From: Escherichia phage RB16 | Sequence record: NC_014467.1 | Direction: 5' to 3' (one strand) | Length of the DNA: 64,000 nucleotides | Shown: in pieces, positions 3,152 to 32,088 of the stretch | Layout of the letters: the number at the start of each line of letters is the position of its first letter | How positions within the stretch are numbered: position 1 is the stretch's first letter | The notes under the pieces: model-generated | Seen by the model: the letters and a program-made list of their open reading frames with translations, nothing else | Told to the model about the DNA's origin: nothing | Databases searched by the model: none | Translations under genes and position numbers: made by a program

Positions 3152-4965
3152 AACAAGAAATTATTATTGGTAACGTGGTTGATGATGGCGCTGGCGATTA
3201 CTTACGCCGTGGTGGTCAGAAAACAAACGCTAACTTTACCGAACTATACGAAAAGCTGGGTGATGGGGAGATCCCACACCCAGCGGGTGCATGGAAAACA
3301 CATTCAGCACCGACTCTGAACCCGATTTTCGGTGATTCATGGGCGCTGAATACCAGCAACAACCGTATTACTGTAAACCTCCCTAAAGGCGGCGTAGGCG
3401 ATTATAACAAGGTTATTCGTCTGCGTGACGTATGGAGTAAATGGGCTGTAAACAACGTCCGTATTGTTCCTGCAACTGGTGATACCATCAAAGGATCACC
3501 AACTTACAAAGAACTGTACAAAGATTTCATGGATGTTGAGTTAGTTTATTGTGCGCCTGGTCGTTGGGAATATGTCGAAAACAAACAGGTTGACAAAATC
3601 ACAACTTCCGATCTGGCTACTGTAGCAAAAGAAACATATATTGCTACACAAGGACAGACAGATTTCCCGAATGTGTTTGGCCCTGGTAACTCGTACAACG
3701 TCCGTGCTCTGGAAGTTTACTATCGTGGTAACTTGCTGTACATCGACGACAAAAACGGATTTGTTGAAGCAAACAGCGATTATGGTTCACCTGGTACAAA
3801 CCCTGGAGAATTGATTGACCTTGATGGTACTAACATACGCCTTAAACGTCCGTGTAACGCTGGAGACACGCTTCAATTCGTAACCTATATGGATGGTATA
3901 GCGACATGGCGATCGACGTATGAGGCGCATACTATGCGCGTATACAACACGGGTGATACTGAACTGGTAAGCGTACCTGGTGAAATCTGGGTTGGCAACC
4001 TTGCAACCAAAAAAGAATTTACCACTGCTGAATTCGGGATCAGTTCTCGTGTATTGATTAATCCGAACTCTTTCGAACTGCTGTTGAACGGTCGCCAACT
4101 TGTTAAAGCAGGTGACGCGGATCTTCCTACATTCGTGTGTGAAGGGGCAGAAGGTTATGATGAAGATAGCTGTTTAGCTAACTCCGGTGCGTGGGTTCCT
4201 TCTGGACAGGACTACAGTTTGATCTTTGTTGATTCCATTGTAACAGGTATCAAATTCAGTCAACCTCTTGAAAGTCGCGATGTTGTTACGATCCGTTGGT
4301 TCAATAACGATATCGGAACTGTAATGGAATGGGAAGGTGTTGGCGGTATTAAAGAGCATACCGATAAAATCTATCTGAACAACGAAGAAGAGTTAACCCT
4401 AGTTGGACGGATTGAATATACCGACTATAACAACCCGTCGCAGAAAACGATGCGTAAAATTACGGAACCTTTCAGCGGTCGATTGCTGGATCTGCAAGCG
4501 TTTTTTGATGTGATTCATCCGATCGGGACGATCTACGAAAACGCGCATAACGACGCAAACCCAGGCGAATACATGGGCTTCGGTATCTGGAAACGGTACG
4601 CAGAAGGTCAATTTATCGCTGGTTGGACAACTGATGCAGCAGATAGCGATTTTGGTTTAAACAACAACGATTTGGATGGTTCTGGACAGCCTACACACAC
4701 AGCAGGTGGTTCTGGTGGTGAACGTGGTTATGAAATTCATCCGATCAACGTTCCACAAATTGAATCAACCGATAAAGTTCTGATTAAGGACGACAACGGG
4801 ATCATTATCATTGGTGGCTGTCAGGTTGACCCAGATGCAACAGGGCCAGGATACACTAAATACCGTGAGGATGTATTGAAAGTAAATCAGGGTAACACTA
4901 CCCCAGATAAACTTAAAACGCTCCCTCCGTATATTACTGCACATCGCTGGATAAGGGTAGCATAA
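3148..4965 (+). CDS. gp10: Baseplate wedge protein gp10
   Basis: 605 aa against T4 gp10 at 602 aa; ATGA-type overlap with gp9; position between gp9 and gp11. Confidence 0.8.
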   Translation: MKQEIIIGNVVDDGAGDYLRRGGQKTNANFTELYEKLGDGEIPHPAGAWKTHSAPTLNPIFGDSWALNTSNNRITVNLPKGGVGDYNKVIRLRDVWSKWAVNNVRIVPATGDTIKGSPTYKELYKDFMDVELVYCAPGRWEYVENKQVDKITTSDLATVAKETYIATQGQTDFPNVFGPGNSYNVRALEVYYRGNLLYIDDKNGFVEANSDYGSPGTNPGELIDLDGTNIRLKRPCNAGDTLQFVTYMDGIATWRSTYEAHTMRVYNTGDTELVSVPGEIWVGNLATKKEFTTAEFGISSRVLINPNSFELLLNGRQLVKAGDADLPTFVCEGAEGYDEDSCLANSGAWVPSGQDYSLIFVDSIVTGIKFSQPLESRDVVTIRWFNNDIGTVMEWEGVGGIKEHTDKIYLNNEEELTLVGRIEYTDYNNPSQKTMRKITEPFSGRLLDLQAFFDVIHPIGTIYENAHNDANPGEYMGFGIWKRYAEGQFIAGWTTDAADSDFGLNNNDLDGSGQPTHTAGGSGGERGYEIHPINVPQIESTDKVLIKDDNGIIIIGGCQVDPDATGPGYTKYREDVLKVNQGNTTPDKLKTLPPYITAHRWIRVA

Positions 4966-5636: not shown

Positions 5637-7028
5637 ATGAGTAACAACACAATTAACCACGTAAGCGATGCGTCCGTTTACGTGACTTTTGATCCGGCAG
5701 GTACGCAATGGCCCTCGACTTTCGTCAACGTACAGCAAGCATTAGCCTCTATAGGCCCGTGGGCGCGTACTGATGTTGGTTTGCCTAACGCGGCTCCTGG
5801 TATGCGTGGTATTGCTGCTATTGCTACCGAGGCGATGATTGACGCAGGGACAGACAACGAAACGATCGTTACTCCTGCATTGCTGGCATATCGTTTACAA
5901 AATCCTCATGCGTCACAAACCGTTTGGGGATATACCAAATACGCAACTGATGCGGAAGCGGTTGATGTCGCAAACGATCTGGTTTCATTAACTCCGCGTT
6001 CGATCAATGTGGTTTTCAATACCAGACACGCATCAGAAACCGTGTGGGGTTCTTCTAAACTGTCAACGACAGCACAGGCAACAGCGGGTACTGATGATAC
6101 AACCTCAATGACACCATTGAAGGTAAAACAAGCAATCTCTGCTCTGGTTCCGGTACAATCCAACGCAACAGAAAGCGCGTTCGGTTTGGTTCAGTTGGCT
6201 ACGGTTTCAGAAGTCCGCGCGGGTACTATTCGCGACGGTTTCGCAATTTCACCGTATACGTTTATTCGTCTGAATGCAACAGAAAGCGATCTGGGTATTG
6301 TTCGCCTAGCAAGTCAGGCAGAAGTAAACGCAGGAACTGATGATACCAAAGCCGTTACCCCGTTAAAACTGGCTAACCTTAAAGGCTCCGGTGGTTCTTT
6401 CGGTTTGGTTAAATTATCAACAGAAGTAAACGCAGGGCTGGCTAACACTGCTCTTTCTGCGGGTGCTAACGTAGTACCGAGCAACCGTGACAGCGCTATC
6501 ACTGGTGGTGCATTGTATCAGGGTTCAGTTGCTGCTGCTAATAAATACCAGACACATAGCGATATCGAAGCATCGTTACCGATTGGCTGTATGATGATGG
6601 CTGCATTTAACTCCGATTACGGAAACCTGTGTATTGCCAACGGTCGCGGGATGTATACATACGAATACCCAGAACTGTTTGCACGTATAGGCTATACGTA
6701 TGGCGGTAGTGGTAACATCTTTAATCTTCCTGATATGCGCGGCGTAGTTGCTCGCGGATTTGATGCGGGACGTGGTTTAGACCCAGGTCGTGGATTTGGT
6801 ACATACCAGCATCACGAAGTACAGTCTCATGAGCATCCATTGCAGATGATCTATCAGTCTGGTGGTAACTTACCATCATGGCAGTGTGTTTATGAACTGC
6901 GTACTGCTGAGAAGAATGACCAGAAATTATACTGGCCTGATCCATCACTCAGTAAAGCAATGGCTGTAGGCGGTAACGAAACGCGAATGAAGAACCTTGC
7001 GGTCAACTATGTAATTCGAGTACGATAA
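5637..7028 (+). CDS. gp12: Short tail fibre protein gp12-like
   Basis: 463 aa; repeated tail-fibre motif (A.TD.G..RLA/LAT..EV.AGTDDT) shared with the gp34-like protein in this window; His-rich C-terminal segment HHEVQSHEH; position between gp11 and wac. Confidence 0.7.
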   Translation: MSNNTINHVSDASVYVTFDPAGTQWPSTFVNVQQALASIGPWARTDVGLPNAAPGMRGIAAIATEAMIDAGTDNETIVTPALLAYRLQNPHASQTVWGYTKYATDAEAVDVANDLVSLTPRSINVVFNTRHASETVWGSSKLSTTAQATAGTDDTTSMTPLKVKQAISALVPVQSNATESAFGLVQLATVSEVRAGTIRDGFAISPYTFIRLNATESDLGIVRLASQAEVNAGTDDTKAVTPLKLANLKGSGGSFGLVKLSTEVNAGLANTALSAGANVVPSNRDSAITGGALYQGSVAAANKYQTHSDIEASLPIGCMMMAAFNSDYGNLCIANGRGMYTYEYPELFARIGYTYGGSGNIFNLPDMRGVVARGFDAGRGLDPGRGFGTYQHHEVQSHEHPLQMIYQSGGNLPSWQCVYELRTAEKNDQKLYWPDPSLSKAMAVGGNETRMKNLAVNYVIRVR

Positions 7029-22984: not shown

Positions 22985-23623
22985 ATGAAACACATCATTT
23001 ATAAAATAACAAACACCATCAATAACAAAATATATGTTGGTGCTCACTCAACCGAAGATATCAACGATTCATACATGGGTTCCGGTATTGCAATCAAAAA
23101 AGCGCAAAAGAAATATGGTATGGAACATTTCACAAAAGAAATACTTCATGTATTTGATACCCGTGAAGAAATGTATGAGAAGGAAAGGGAAATAGTTGAT
23201 ATTGAATTCATAAATCGACCAGATACATATAATGCTGGTATTGGTGGTAAAGGTGCTCCAATGGCGTTGATTGGATGGAGTGATGAACAACGCAAGCTGA
23301 TTTCCGAAAATACTTCGAAAGCTATGCAAACTCCAGAAATGCGCGAACGCCTTTCAAAAATAAAAACAGGGAAGAAGCAATCAGAAGAATCCAACAGGAA
23401 GCGTTCAGAGACTATCAAAGCTATGTACAAGGGTTCTGCATTCGACAGAACCGGATCTAAGCTCACAGACGCGCACAAGGCCAAAATAAGCCGTTCTGTG
23501 TCGATAGATGGAGTTGTTTACGCAAGCGGTTCCGATGCTTCTAAAGCGTTGGGGCTTTCTCGATCTGGCCTTGATTACCGTTTAAAGAGTGACAAATTTC
23601 CTGAATGGAAATTCGTTGCATAA
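22985..23623 (+). CDS. GIY-YIG homing endonuclease (seg-like; same position as T4 segD between genes 23 and 24)
   Basis: N-terminal GIY-YIG motif IIYKITN...KIYVGAHS; basic C-terminal half typical of a DNA-binding domain; inserted between gp23 and gp24. Confidence 0.8.
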   Translation: MKHIIYKITNTINNKIYVGAHSTEDINDSYMGSGIAIKKAQKKYGMEHFTKEILHVFDTREEMYEKEREIVDIEFINRPDTYNAGIGGKGAPMALIGWSDEQRKLISENTSKAMQTPEMRERLSKIKTGKKQSEESNRKRSETIKAMYKGSAFDRTGSKLTDAHKAKISRSVSIDGVVYASGSDASKALGLSRSGLDYRLKSDKFPEWKFVA

Positions 23624-23661: not shown

Positions 23662-24960
23662 ATGAGTGATAAACACTACACAATTCACAAGTTGATGCGT
23701 CAGTCTGCGCTTCCGTCTGGTAAACGCGAAAAGGTTATCAACGAAGCAACAGGCACGACCGATATCAACGTACAGAACACGCGCCCAGAACTGGTTTCTT
23801 TGACTCGCGCTGTGAACAACCTGATCTATCATGAACTGGTTGCTGTACAAGAAACGGATTTACCAGTAGCTACCCTTTTCGGTGTTCGTTATCGCAACCC
23901 TAATGGGGACATGACTTTCTCCAGCGCTGCAACCTATTCAGGCCGCATATCTGGACGTACAGACATCGACGATATCGATCTGGCTAAGGCATACGTCAAA
24001 GGCGATTTATTCAAGCACGATGTCACTGACGTTGTGTATGAGGTCATCGAACCTGTAAAGCTAAACGCGCTGGATACTGATAAAGACACCGCAATCATGA
24101 AAGCTGTGTTCCAAAGTAAAATTCGTTTGGTTAGCGAAGCCGCAGACACTTCAAAATATGAAACCAGTGAAGATATCGCATCAACCTCTTTCCAGATGGA
24201 TCGTTGGAACATTCCGGTTCGTTCACGTAAGTTTAAAACTGAAATGACCGTGGAATTGATGCAGGATCTGGAAGCAAACCAGTTTGAAGCCGATGGGGTA
24301 ATTGAAGATATCCTGGGTACGGTTGCAAGCGAAGAAGTCAACAAAGATATTATTCAGACGCTGATCACCGTTTCCAAACGATATAACGTTGATGGTGTAG
24401 TTGTCGATGGTATTTTTGACGGTACAACCACATACACTGCGAAGGATGCTCCAGCATTGGGCCGCATACTCTATCAATTAGCGTGCGAAATGGGCCAAGA
24501 AATGAATAGAACGACTTCATTTGATGCAACCTACGTCCTCGCTAGTGCTCGCGTTGTAGGCGTTCTGGCTGCGTCTGGTTGGATGACCGAAACCGACGAA
24601 CAACACCCGCTGGCAACTGGTAAACTTCAAAACGGTTATTATGTCTATACCGACACGAATACACCGTTTGATTATCTGCTTACCGGATGCAAATACGATC
24701 TGGGTGATATGGATCACGTAGGTTCTCTGTTCTTCACTCCGTACACCGAAGCGGATGATGCAGGTTCAATCAAGGTATCCGTAGATCCTGCATCACTGCA
24801 ACCGAAAGTTGCTATTCTGATGCGTTACGGTTTATCTGTGAACCCATACACAACGGAATCCGACTCTGAACGGTTGACCAAAGGCGATGACTGGTCGAAT
24901 CTGGCTGGTAAATCCAAACTCAGTCAAATCGTAGGTATTAAATTACCTAAGCTGGGTTAA
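23662..24960 (+). CDS. gp24: Capsid vertex protein gp24
   Basis: Similarity to T4 gp24 and gp23 as recalled (LTRA...LIY..V..Q.T..PVA, ASARV.G.LAASGW, NPYT); start placed at the ATG at 23662 (MSDKHY) rather than the track start at 23605, which overlaps the seg-like gene. Confidence 0.9.
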   Translation: MSDKHYTIHKLMRQSALPSGKREKVINEATGTTDINVQNTRPELVSLTRAVNNLIYHELVAVQETDLPVATLFGVRYRNPNGDMTFSSAATYSGRISGRTDIDDIDLAKAYVKGDLFKHDVTDVVYEVIEPVKLNALDTDKDTAIMKAVFQSKIRLVSEAADTSKYETSEDIASTSFQMDRWNIPVRSRKFKTEMTVELMQDLEANQFEADGVIEDILGTVASEEVNKDIIQTLITVSKRYNVDGVVVDGIFDGTTTYTAKDAPALGRILYQLACEMGQEMNRTTSFDATYVLASARVVGVLAASGWMTETDEQHPLATGKLQNGYYVYTDTNTPFDYLLTGCKYDLGDMDHVGSLFFTPYTEADDAGSIKVSVDPASLQPKVAILMRYGLSVNPYTTESDSERLTKGDDWSNLAGKSKLSQIVGIKLPKLG

Positions 24961-25180
24961 TCAAGTTTTGAGAAGACCATTATAATAACAAAGATCAAGA
25001 AGGTCAAACGAGCGAAGCGAGTTTTCACGAACGAAGTGAGTGATGGGTACTACTAACTACATAATTATATTTTTATATTTTATATATAGAGAAAAATGTA
25101 GTTTTTGGTATGTTTTTTAACCAGATGTAAACTAACATTCATTCGCTTCGCTCATTCATGTACTCACTTCGTTCGTAGAT
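24961..25180. repeat. Complex inverted-repeat element with AT-rich core (three inverted-repeat pairs)
   Basis: gatcaagaaggtcaaa (24993-25008) vs tttgacttcttgatc (25180-25194); gagcgaagcga (25010-25020) vs tcgcttcgctc (25143-25153); cgaacgaagtgagt (25029-25042) vs actcacttcgttcg (25163-25176); flanking a ~70-nt AT-rich core. Confidence 0.6.
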
Positions 25181-25208
25181 TTGACTTCTTGATCATGATG
25201 GTTATAAT
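25181..25208 (+). promoter_or_regulatory. Sigma70-like promoter upstream of uvsY (TTGACT-N16-TATAAT)
   Basis: TTGACT at 25181-25186 and TATAAT at 25203-25208; uvsY starts at 25232. Confidence 0.5.
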
Positions 25209-25231
25209 ACTACTTTGTTTTGAGGTGATTC

Positions 25232-25654
25232 ATGGCTGAACTAAAACTTGAAGATTTACAGGCTGAACTCGAAAAGGATATGTTGATCGACCCTCTGAAA
25301 CTACAGAGTGAATCAGCAGACATTCCTAAGATTTGGTCTAAGTGGCTTCGATATCATTCGAATGCTAAGAAAAAACTGATCCAGCTACAGGCCAGGAAAG
25401 AAGCAGAAGTGAAAGAACGTCTTCTGTATTACACTGGACGGCATGAGACTGAAATGACTGATGTCATTTACACAGGTTCAGGTGAAATTAAGATTGCGAT
25501 CAATGGCGATCCGAAAATTGTTGAGGTTAACAAACTGATTCAGTATTTCGAACTGATTGCAGAATTCACCAGTAAGGCGCTGGACATTGTTAAGAACAAA
25601 GGATATTCTATCAAAAATATGTTGGAAATCCGAAAACTTGAGAGTGGTGCATAA
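25232..25654 (+). CDS. uvsY: Recombination mediator protein UvsY
   Basis: 140 aa; matches T4 UvsY as recalled (LEDLQ.EL.KD..ID..KLQ.E.A.....SKWL..HS..KK, RL.YY.GR, K..G..IK). Confidence 0.85.
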   Translation: MAELKLEDLQAELEKDMLIDPLKLQSESADIPKIWSKWLRYHSNAKKKLIQLQARKEAEVKERLLYYTGRHETEMTDVIYTGSGEIKIAINGDPKIVEVNKLIQYFELIAEFTSKALDIVKNKGYSIKNMLEIRKLESGA

Positions 25655-31254: not shown

Positions 31255-32088
31255 TCAACCCCATGTGTCTGTTTTAGGTGCGTATGCTGCAACTTTAGCC
31301 ACTAATTCCTTATCAAGCTGATCGATAGATTTCTGTGCTTTGCCTTTTGCCTTAACTTTGATGTAGTTAGACTTGACAACGAACATACCGCCTTTGTCAG
31401 ATTTCTTGATTTCGCTATCGATACCAACTTTGTTAAAGCTGATCCAGATATCACCATCCATGTATTGTTTCAGTGAATCACCCATGTTCAGGATCTTAGC
31501 CATAGTAAGCGCTGCTCCTTCGTGGGTATCCATAAGGATCTCTTTAGGAACCACACGGTCACGTTTCAGGTTCTGCTGCATAGCAATATGAACATCGTTC
31601 ATTACCCAAACGATATGGATGTTTTCTTTATGATATCCCAGCGTTTCAACGTCACGGGCAATGCTTGCCAGCTTGCTCATGCTTTTTAGGGTAACGTCGA
31701 AAATCAGGTTTGGTTTGCGGTCTTCTGGTGCTGCTGCAATACCAGCATAAACACGCGCCTGGTTTTTGTTGGATACGTTGAAAACGTCTGCGATCACATG
31801 ATGCAGGGTTGCCACGTTATCCGGGTTTTTCAAGTTCATGGTTTTAACATCATGACCAGTTTTAGCTTTGATTTCTGCCGCCAGTTTGGTGCTACCCATT
31901 ACCAGCTTTTTCAGTGCGTCAACGTCCAGTGTGATTCCTTCGATACCTAACAGTTTTTCGAGGGTAAAACCTTTACCGGAACCCGCACCGCCAGCCAGGA
32001 TCACAACCTGACCAAATTTAGGATATGCCTTGCCGCCAAACGTAATCAACGCTTCGTCAAGGGATACAAAGTCTTTGAATGATTTCAT
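31255..32088 (-). CDS. P-loop kinase with NMP-kinase-like Walker A; putative nucleotide/polynucleotide kinase
   Basis: 277 aa; LAGGAGSGKGF resembles the adenylate/UMP-CMP kinase P-loop GxPGxGKG; immediately upstream, on the same strand, of the HAD phosphatase. Confidence 0.45.
   Translation of the reverse strand: MKSFKDFVSLDEALITFGGKAYPKFGQVVILAGGAGSGKGFTLEKLLGIEGITLDVDALKKLVMGSTKLAAEIKAKTGHDVKTMNLKNPDNVATLHHVIADVFNVSNKNQARVYAGIAAAPEDRKPNLIFDVTLKSMSKLASIARDVETLGYHKENIHIVWVMNDVHIAMQQNLKRDRVVPKEILMDTHEGAALTMAKILNMGDSLKQYMDGDIWISFNKVGIDSEIKKSDKGGMFVVKSNYIKVKAKGKAQKSIDQLDKELVAKVAAYAPKTDTWG

Follow-up and report, generated by a model that had tools for sequence, protein, structure and literature searches.

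The five replication origins of phage T4 share no sequence motif, and only two of them have a defined mechanism (PMC3016281). Both oriF and oriG combine a MotA-dependent middle promoter (a MotA box at -30, no -35 hexamer) with a downstream AT-rich unwinding element, leading to an R-loop, and oriE, oriF and oriG are the origins that lie at transcriptional divergence and skew shifts (Kreuzer and Brister, PMC3016281). The origins of T4-type phages have long been a puzzle. The DNA analysed here is a window of 64,000 nucleotides from Escherichia phage RB16 (NC_014467.1), a Pseudotevenvirus (RB43-group, T4-like), and the region under study is the 271 bp from the stop codon of gene 24 (capsid vertex; 24958-24960) to the ATG of uvsY (open reading frame 25232-25654), a gene annotated in Escherichia phage Lw1, to which the window is 98.7% identical across the region. 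The region contains a module consisting of an AT-rich stem-loop, with a covarying stem and a near-invariant loop, and two hairpin units on each side of it, an anatomy known from other origins. We read it as a cis-acting DNA element at which Pseudotevenvirus phages most likely initiate replication, with a probability of about 0.5. Since its copies lie at points of transcription divergence, and since it is also found in anti-phage islands of bacteria, it would most likely be a replication start site that the islands have copied.

When the complete Lw1 genome (KC801932.2) is scanned for the inner module of ∼170 bp, three copies appear. Copy 1 (∼31.7 kb, about 31,673-31,838) lies between rnh, which runs leftward, and gene 55, which runs rightward; copy 2 (∼100.8 kb, about 100,699-100,861) lies between gene 3 (leftward) and Lw1_gp190 (rightward); and copy 3, the one in the region studied, is upstream of uvsY at ∼135.8 kb. 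Within the 64-kb window neither local BLAST nor a motif search found a further copy. Copies 1 and 2 occupy spacers between diverging genes, and they coincide with the two global minima of the cumulative GC skew (31-32 kb and 100-101 kb). At each of the three copies transcription runs outward on both sides, which copy 3 achieves by way of an orphan leftward promoter. BLAST with the intergenic regions of copies 1 and 2 recovers copies at the same syntenic sites in ∼60 Pseudotevenvirus records, typically in three places and in some records in two, and Yersinia phage JC221 and Pantoea phage Phynn have the module as well. Copy 3, together with both outward promoters, is retained in two metagenomic phages that are more distant (L023 and L024), and a distant T4-like phage from freshwater sediment (L033, Ga0315284_10020813) has the left unit pair upstream of gene 55 (4746-4775), with an identical core of unit C. 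The initial annotation, which had proposed a candidate origin at this locus from the window alone, named, as part of what would refute it, related phages that kept the uvsY promoter and lacked the repeats; the module is in fact kept in every relative that has the promoter. Purifying selection acts on its structure and, in the loop, also on its sequence: its copies in phages are fixed in syntenic places, changes in the stems are compensatory and the loop block is nearly invariant.

A 174,436-bp phage contig of a related lineage (L020/L021) has a gp24-uvsY spacer that lacks the module, an AT-rich sequence of 300 bp with repeated promoter-like sequences containing TAGATCA. Two records, PP337149.1 (HK6) and OP970827.1 (Kp_GWPR59), start or end within a module copy, probably because the assembly broke at the three-copy repeat and not because a real terminus lies there.

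The places occupied by the copies recall those of T4 origins. In the T4 record, oriF is at 115,321, six bases from the start of uvsY (115,327); oriG is inside gene 34, at 152,947, and the adjacent, divergent rnh starts 2.2 kb away from it; and oriE is at 79,355 in gene 5, inside the cluster 3-2-4|53-5. The module copies adjoin uvsY (an exact match), rnh (on the oriG side) and gene 3 (on the oriE side), and in the region studied the module ends 55 nt before the uvsY ATG, with T4 oriF at the 5' end of the same gene. The positional match is suggestive, but it is confounded with transcription polarity.

At copy 3 two promoters form the edges of the region. The rightward sigma-70-type promoter of uvsY (25181-25208, + strand), which the initial annotation had described correctly, reads TTGACT-N16-TATAAT, agrees with the consensus at 11 of 12 positions and is conserved in all relatives. 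A leftward promoter of the same type (24979-25007, - strand), overlooked at that stage, reads TTGACC (25007-25002)-N17-TATAAT (24984-24979) and is its equal in strength (also 11/12). Its hexamers are kept as TTGAYY-N17-TAYAAT in all relatives, JC221, L023 and L024 included; there is no gene for it to express, and it would give a transcript antisense to gene 24 at that gene's 3' end. An inverted paralogue of the uvsY promoter, with CTTCTTGATC common to both spacers, it is itself the outer repeat arm, so that the outermost inverted repeat (pair A, 24979-25002 and 25185-25208; 24 nt, 79% complementary) amounts to two promoter copies, both directed outward. The region is thus flanked by promoters that fire away from its AT-rich core, and at copy 3 outward transcription on both sides needs the otherwise purposeless leftward one. 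Each of the two spacers contains a GATC (Dam) site (window 24993-24996 and 25191-25194); at copy 1, the spacer of the promoter that points left has a GATC too in Lw1, leB, EC-W2, Phynn and JC221, and Lw1 encodes a Dam methylase. Candidate promoters within the core were rejected: the sole inward-facing candidate is a weak 8/12 match by eye, removed by an 11-nt deletion in leB/GAP161, and the exact late-promoter sequence TATAAATA is found only in CfP1, where it arises from a 1-nt deletion.

Such an arrangement could also serve the flanking promoters. The module would then be an architectural or regulatory element, acting through a DNA-binding protein of the phage or the host, or through the intrinsic curvature of phased A/T tracts, as a shared upstream element or insulator, with no role in replication. 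This would agree with the position of all three copies between diverging units, with the strong sigma-70 promoters that directly adjoin copies 1 and 3, with the ∼10-nt spacing of A/T tracts in the core, and with the CfP1 record, in which copy 1 lies under a feature annotated 'promoter'; the uniform type of core within each genome (see below) would suit a sequence-specific binding protein. We nevertheless consider it unlikely, as complementary positions covary through many different sequences, which argues for intrastrand pairing and not for recognition of the duplex. Furthermore, the island copies are without the two phage promoters, the left neighbour of copy 2 is a late gene with only a late-type promoter, and the other divergence points of the Lw1 genome have no module.

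Inside the promoters, the two other pairs of inverted repeats that had been reported are present as described: pair B (25007-25020 and 25143-25156; 14 nt, 93% complementary) and pair C (25027-25041 and 25162-25176; 15 nt, 100% complementary). They are two variants of a single 13-nt unit, GARCGAAGYGAGT, present in four copies, two per strand; allowing up to one mismatch, these four are its only occurrences in the window. Each unit folds on its purine-rich strand (the top one for the left pair of units, the bottom one for the right pair), which gives the module mirror symmetry. Unit B (25006-25024, + strand) folds as AAAC-GA-GC-GAA-GC-GA-GTTT and unit C (25025-25043, + strand) as TCAC-GA-AC-GAA-GT-GA-GTGA, while on the bottom strand the right-inner unit B' (25141-25155, - strand) folds as AT-GA-GC-GAA-GC-GA-AT and the right-outer unit C' (25161-25177, - strand) as TAC-GA-AC-GAA-GT-GA-GTA. 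Unit C' is the exact complement of unit C across 15 nt, and a 20-nt core of unit C, TTCACGAACGAAGTGAGTGA, is invariant in 13 of 13 aligned phage sequences.

For a wider comparison, 51 distinct units from phages, islands and different genomic copies were laid out on their purine-rich strands. They share the order outer stem (2-5 bp), GA, R-C, G-N-A, G-Y, GA, outer stem. The loop is always GNA (GAA, GTA or GCA) and is closed by C-G, followed by an R-Y pair and tandem G·A pairs. The outer stems vary yet stay complementary (AC/GT, AT/AT, CC/GG, TC/GA, GT/AC, AG/CT): that of unit B is AAAT/ATTT in RB43, CC/GG in islands and GT/AC in L033, and that of unit C is GACAC/GTGTC in islands and TC/GA in L023. 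The inner pair alternates between G-C, A-T and C-G (the A-T of unit C becomes C-G in Phynn), and in some copies Watson-Crick pairs take the place of the tandem G·A pairs, through changes on the 5' side in L028/L053 and JC221 and on the 3' side in copy 2 of JC221. In total, 80.7% of the pair cells are paired, compared to 63.7 ± 1.8% in shuffles, a level that 0 of 500 shuffles reach; the covariation score is 0.534 against 0.212 in shuffles, and registers slid out of place are only 16-43% paired. The hairpin units are under selection for base pairing. The loop motif GCGNAGC is an extraordinarily stable DNA mini-hairpin that contains a sheared G·A pair and has a Tm of 70-76 °C, and its RNA form is far weaker (PMC13037366).

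The AT-rich core noted by the initial annotation (25043-25140) has 78.6% A+T, compared to 56% for the window. It contains a stem-loop (25055-25103) with the arms AACTACAT (25055-25062) and ATGTAGTT (25096-25103). Within the AT-rich loop, the block TATATTTTATATATAGAGAAAA (25074-25095) is nearly invariant in alignments, as is a second block, TTTTTAACCA (25114-25123), which lies to the right of the core hairpin and occurs in all three Lw1 copies. The stem itself exists in four to five types among relatives, with compensatory changes: arms from the same genome pair at a mean of -9.4 kcal/mol, compared to -5.3 for arms of different types, and some of the pairs are G·T on the top strand. All copies of a genome have the same type (type 1 in the three copies of Lw1, type 3 in the three of leB, type 2 in both EC-W2 copies checked, and a type of its own in the three of JC221), and the type may differ even between genomes that are near-identical in the flanks. 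One metagenomic phage contig (L031) has a deletion of ∼13 nt within the conserved loop.

The order of the repeats had been described as not that of a simple palindrome. This is true of the region studied, where they run A-B-C...B'-C'-A', with B and C not nested, but it does not hold in general: among the relatives aligned, the non-nested order B-C...B'-C' is restricted to the window and Lw1, while RB43, Miller, CfP1, IME-CF2, GuL6, KPN-11i, EC-W2, EcRAM-01, leB and GAP161 have the nested order C'-B'. Most relatives have a C'-type unit at the right-inner position, where there is a B' unit here, and in Lw1 the right-inner unit of copy 3 is identical, along with its flank, to that of copy 2. This points to gene conversion between copies of one genome, which would explain the odd repeat order. 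Long-range pairing of B with B' and C with C' (a pseudoknot) was considered and rejected, being lineage-specific: relatives are nested, and the local outer stems covary without regard to the other arm. JC221 has, in place of the right-outer unit, a hairpin of the C(UUCG)G type followed by T-rich sequence.

Folding, proposed as a check by the initial annotation, bears out the structure: the 271-nt region has z = -5.0 as DNA and z = -6.2 as RNA, and 0 of 200 shuffles folded as well. As the whole region folds strongly as RNA (-80 kcal/mol), the module might act as a structured 3'-untranslated region, as the terminator of late gene 24 transcripts, or as a small RNA. Late transcripts of gene 24 would indeed enter copy 3, some stem pairs are G·T on the top strand, and the JC221 hairpin with its T-rich sequence would fit such a role. 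A function as RNA is nevertheless highly improbable. Copies 1 and 2 lie between diverging promoters, where no transcript is expected to enter, and their location in untranscribed spacers argues for action at the level of DNA. The units lie on opposite strands, no conserved U-tract follows the hairpins, and GNA triloops are far more stable as DNA. Rfam gave no family match (best score 22 bits against a threshold of 90). A terminator for gene 24 was also sought; the intergenic region has no terminator-like site, and relatives do not conserve the run of T that follows the core stem. That the element acts as DNA is concluded on four grounds: two of the copies are in untranscribed spacers, the units are on opposite strands, GNA hairpins are a DNA speciality, and no RNA family matches.

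Outside phages, the same module came up in BLAST and in scans of metagenomes (by pattern) and of genomes; it is 85-93% identical to the Lw1 copies. Its left half resembles copy 1 and its right half copy 2, and it is not accompanied by phage genes or phage promoters. The carriers are islands on metagenome contigs (L028, L029/L032 from human gut, and L030/L034), on the chromosome of Enterobacter quasiroggenkampii (L053), and in E. coli CX12 and CX08, where the island is inserted in malX and truncated by an insertion sequence, the module of CX12 being cut by ISSen4, together with Citrobacter freundii plasmid p6_C and the 10.8-kb circular element pTR_1_35 (L067). A scan of the genome collection with a 21-mer from the AT-rich loop gave mostly chance matches in AT-rich genomes, the Enterobacter match alone being relevant. 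The elements carry genes for a large serine recombinase, a YkgJ-like protein and an 'inovirus-type Gp2' protein, followed by the module (L029, L053, L066, L067 and L068), which lies ∼140 nt downstream of the Gp2-like gene in every island with enough flank. The Gp2-like gene matches PF11726 (YagK_YfjJ_C) and, weakly, PF23343 (REP_ORF2-G2P). To the right of the module the cargo is variable, with a full-length Ppl in pTR_1_35, a CBASS-type cyclase in p6_C and an HNH protein in L029, so the module is at the border between a conserved backbone and variable defence cargo. Two core types are found in the islands: type 1, which is that of the RB43/Lw1 group, and type 3, which is that of the GAP161/leB group.

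Additional units occur in some of these elements. In L028 a second cluster of five or six GNA/tandem-G·A units (∼1559-1760) lies upstream of the Gp2-like gene, which is therefore flanked by unit clusters on both sides. The right-outer unit of L034 is tandemly duplicated, and downstream of the module pTR_1_35 carries one more unit of the left type. In a bacterial chromosome (L036, JABUBO010001044.1, ∼5900-6130), the unit pair GCGAGCGAAGCGAGC then CACGAACGAAGTGAGTG is part of a REP-like intergenic array between genes for a polyprenyl synthetase and an outer-membrane protein; this pair could belong to the same family or be convergent.

The presence of a multi-copy, palindromic sequence in unrelated replicons, next to an HUH-related gene in the islands, also brings to mind a selfish repeat such as REP/BIME sequences or MITEs. 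Recombination would have spread it and kept its copies alike, the HUH-type Gp2-like protein of the islands may have mobilised it, and phages would simply tolerate it between their genes. The extra unit clusters and local duplications in L028, L034 and L067, the gene conversion between copies and the unit pair in the L036 array would be in keeping with this view. It is a rather improbable explanation, since ∼60 genomes and the distant phages have the module in the same three syntenic places, without presence/absence polymorphism. The compensatory changes and the near-invariant long loop block indicate purifying selection, and phages have no Gp2 homologue. A mobile-element footprint, which the initial annotation had offered as an option, is therefore right in one respect, as the module has moved between phages and islands, and wrong in another, as it is stably syntenic in phages.

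Alternatively, the module may be a hot spot of breakage or recombination, for instance a structure- or site-specific nuclease target that seeds recombination-dependent replication or cassette exchange, or else a signal related to packaging. Patches have been swapped within the module, both between copies and between phages and islands, and its place at the edge of the defence cargo and the endonuclease VII encoded by phages of this group could be taken the same way. Kreuzer and Alberts reportedly observed in 1985 that T4 origins coincide with recombination hot spots, and we have counted this in favour of the idea. However, no module-specific nuclease or recombinase was identified, T4-type packaging is thought to be sequence-independent, and a hot spot would overlap with an origin instead of excluding it. 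We give this explanation a low probability.

The island link is the most novel part of the finding. One tentative and rather doubtful explanation is that small defence islands of the integrative kind, from Enterobacter, Citrobacter, E. coli and hosts of the Klebsiella type, have captured the phage origin module, in core variants that match the phage clade. An infecting phage would then amplify the island, which might raise the dosage of defence genes or titrate initiation factors, and the island might spread by transduction. As the island module matches the phage's own copies, amplification or transduction during infection would be feasible. Phages of the RB43 group have unmodified cytosine and transduce plasmids, and with unmodified DNA and headful packaging the island could also spread as a transducing particle. 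In Pseudomonas, defence islands that bear a Gp2-like gene are mobilised by jumbo-phage transduction. If this is true, the islands would ride on a virulent T4-type phage as satellite-like hitchhikers of a new kind.

How an origin of this kind might work can be outlined as follows. Negative supercoils from divergent transcription would enter the untranscribed spacer and favour opening of the 79%-AT core. On the exposed strands, the mini-hairpins would become compact landmarks left uncovered by single-strand-binding protein, like ssiA/ssiB of RSF1010 or hairpin I of G4, and these would direct the loading of helicase and primase, with forks departing both ways. The initial annotation had suggested an origin analogous to T4 ori(uvsY). 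The idea of an origin gains support from the three copies at divergence points, the T4 neighbourhoods, the conservation, the anatomy and the islands, whereas the specific analogy fails. An AT-rich segment beside a promoter is common to both, but the promoters here fire away from it, so the module does not work like T4 ori(uvsY). The module has no sequence similarity to T4 origin regions, and no units of its type occur near T4 origins; while those origins have no common motif, a single module is found three times here.

Several observations weigh against an origin. Instead of MotA-dependent promoters there are canonical -35 hexamers (TTGACT/TTGACC) with spacers of 16-17 nt; a TGCTT-type MotA box is absent from the intergenic sequence, and motA and asiA are not among the Lw1 annotations. 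The 78.6%-AT core is upstream of both promoters, not downstream as an unwinding element would be. The matches to oriE and oriG are at the level of neighbourhood (2-3.5 kb) and not exact. The GC-skew minima and the T4-origin neighbourhoods coincide with switches in transcription direction, so neither line of evidence stands apart from the other or from a purely transcriptional role. The analysis identified neither an initiator nor a hairpin-binding protein for the module, and a tblastn search of 50,697 phage records found no homologue of the island Gp2-like protein. Lastly, nearest-neighbour calculations give a single unit as DNA no more than 0 to -1.5 kcal/mol; these values are uninformative, because the model has no terms for mini-hairpins and sheared G·A pairs, and the case for the hairpins therefore depends on covariation and on the published properties of the motif.

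Two other features of the window may be mentioned. A small open reading frame at 25105-25239 was rejected as a gene, as it is not conserved and its frame is broken by indels in relatives. Between gene 23 and gene 24 there is a free-standing GIY-YIG homing endonuclease gene (22985-23623, + strand) with an I-TevI DNA-binding domain (E = 1.7e-27); Lw1, the closest relative, lacks it, and in Lw1 gene 24 comes 92 bp after gene 23.

A search of the searchable literature found no prior description of the module, its three-copy distribution or its presence in defence islands, although a mention in a subscription journal could exist. One compact module at three syntenic candidate origins across a genus would turn the question of what makes an origin in Pseudotevenvirus phages into a testable one. 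Such candidate origins would also allow one to examine whether initiation can do without an R-loop, and whether the position of an origin is kept while its sequence is replaced. The module in mobile defence islands suggests that cis-acting replication signals pass between virulent phages and host islands. This is relevant to the way in which such islands sense infection, are amplified and spread, and also to the safety of Pseudotevenvirus therapy, because these phages are generalized transducers.

Among other described systems, the PeSL cassettes of T4-type phages resemble the module in several ways. As Arbiol et al. (2010) and Comeau et al. (2014) reportedly describe them, they are short stretches of non-coding DNA in which a strong sigma-70-like early promoter is joined to stem-loops, and they are repeated within a genome and exchanged by recombination. 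The module is likewise non-coding, has strong sigma-70-like promoters with stem-loops, is repeated within the genome and undergoes recombinational exchange. PeSL cassettes, however, are numerous in a genome, are situated in hyperplastic regions between accessory genes and are terminator-plus-promoter units, whereas the module is present in three copies only, at fixed positions of the core genome, all at core-gene junctions. Moreover, the promoters of the module lie beyond the part that its copies share and are missing from the islands, none of its hairpins is a G+C-rich terminator with a U-tract, and a terminator scan of the intergenic region was empty.

The module shares with REP/BIME sequences and their RAYT proteins, and with HUH rolling-circle origins, inverted imperfect palindromes that fold in single-stranded DNA and, in the islands, an adjacent HUH-related gene. 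Its conserved loop in a repeat-flanked hairpin resembles the nick and bind loci of rolling-circle origins, although no consensus for a rolling-circle nick site was recognised in the module. REP/BIME sequences number hundreds of copies, compared to three here, and the high or variable copy number typical of such repeats and of MITEs is not seen at the syntenic places of ∼60 genomes. A cognate Rep gene in the same replicon, as rolling-circle origins have, is present only in the islands; the phages have no HUH-related gene.

A parallel in arrangement is the vegetative origin (oriV) of the IncQ plasmid RSF1010. Honda et al. (1991) are reported to have described two single-strand initiation (ssi) signals there, on opposite strands and inverted, beside an AT-rich region. 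The module mirrors this, with two top-strand units to the left and two bottom-strand units to the right of its AT-rich core. It differs in having four units instead of two, with tandem G·A pairs in them; neither iterons nor a RepC-like initiator or RepB'-type primase were found, a RepB'-like gene having been sought in the annotation only. What the module has in common with both RSF1010 oriV and the G4 origin is the use of small, very stable GNA or GNNA mini-hairpins, which serve there as priming signals in single-stranded DNA: GCGNAGC has been reported at the G4 complementary-strand origin and in RSF1010 ssiA, ssiA containing CCGAAGG and hairpin I of G4 containing GCGAAAGC (PMC13037366).

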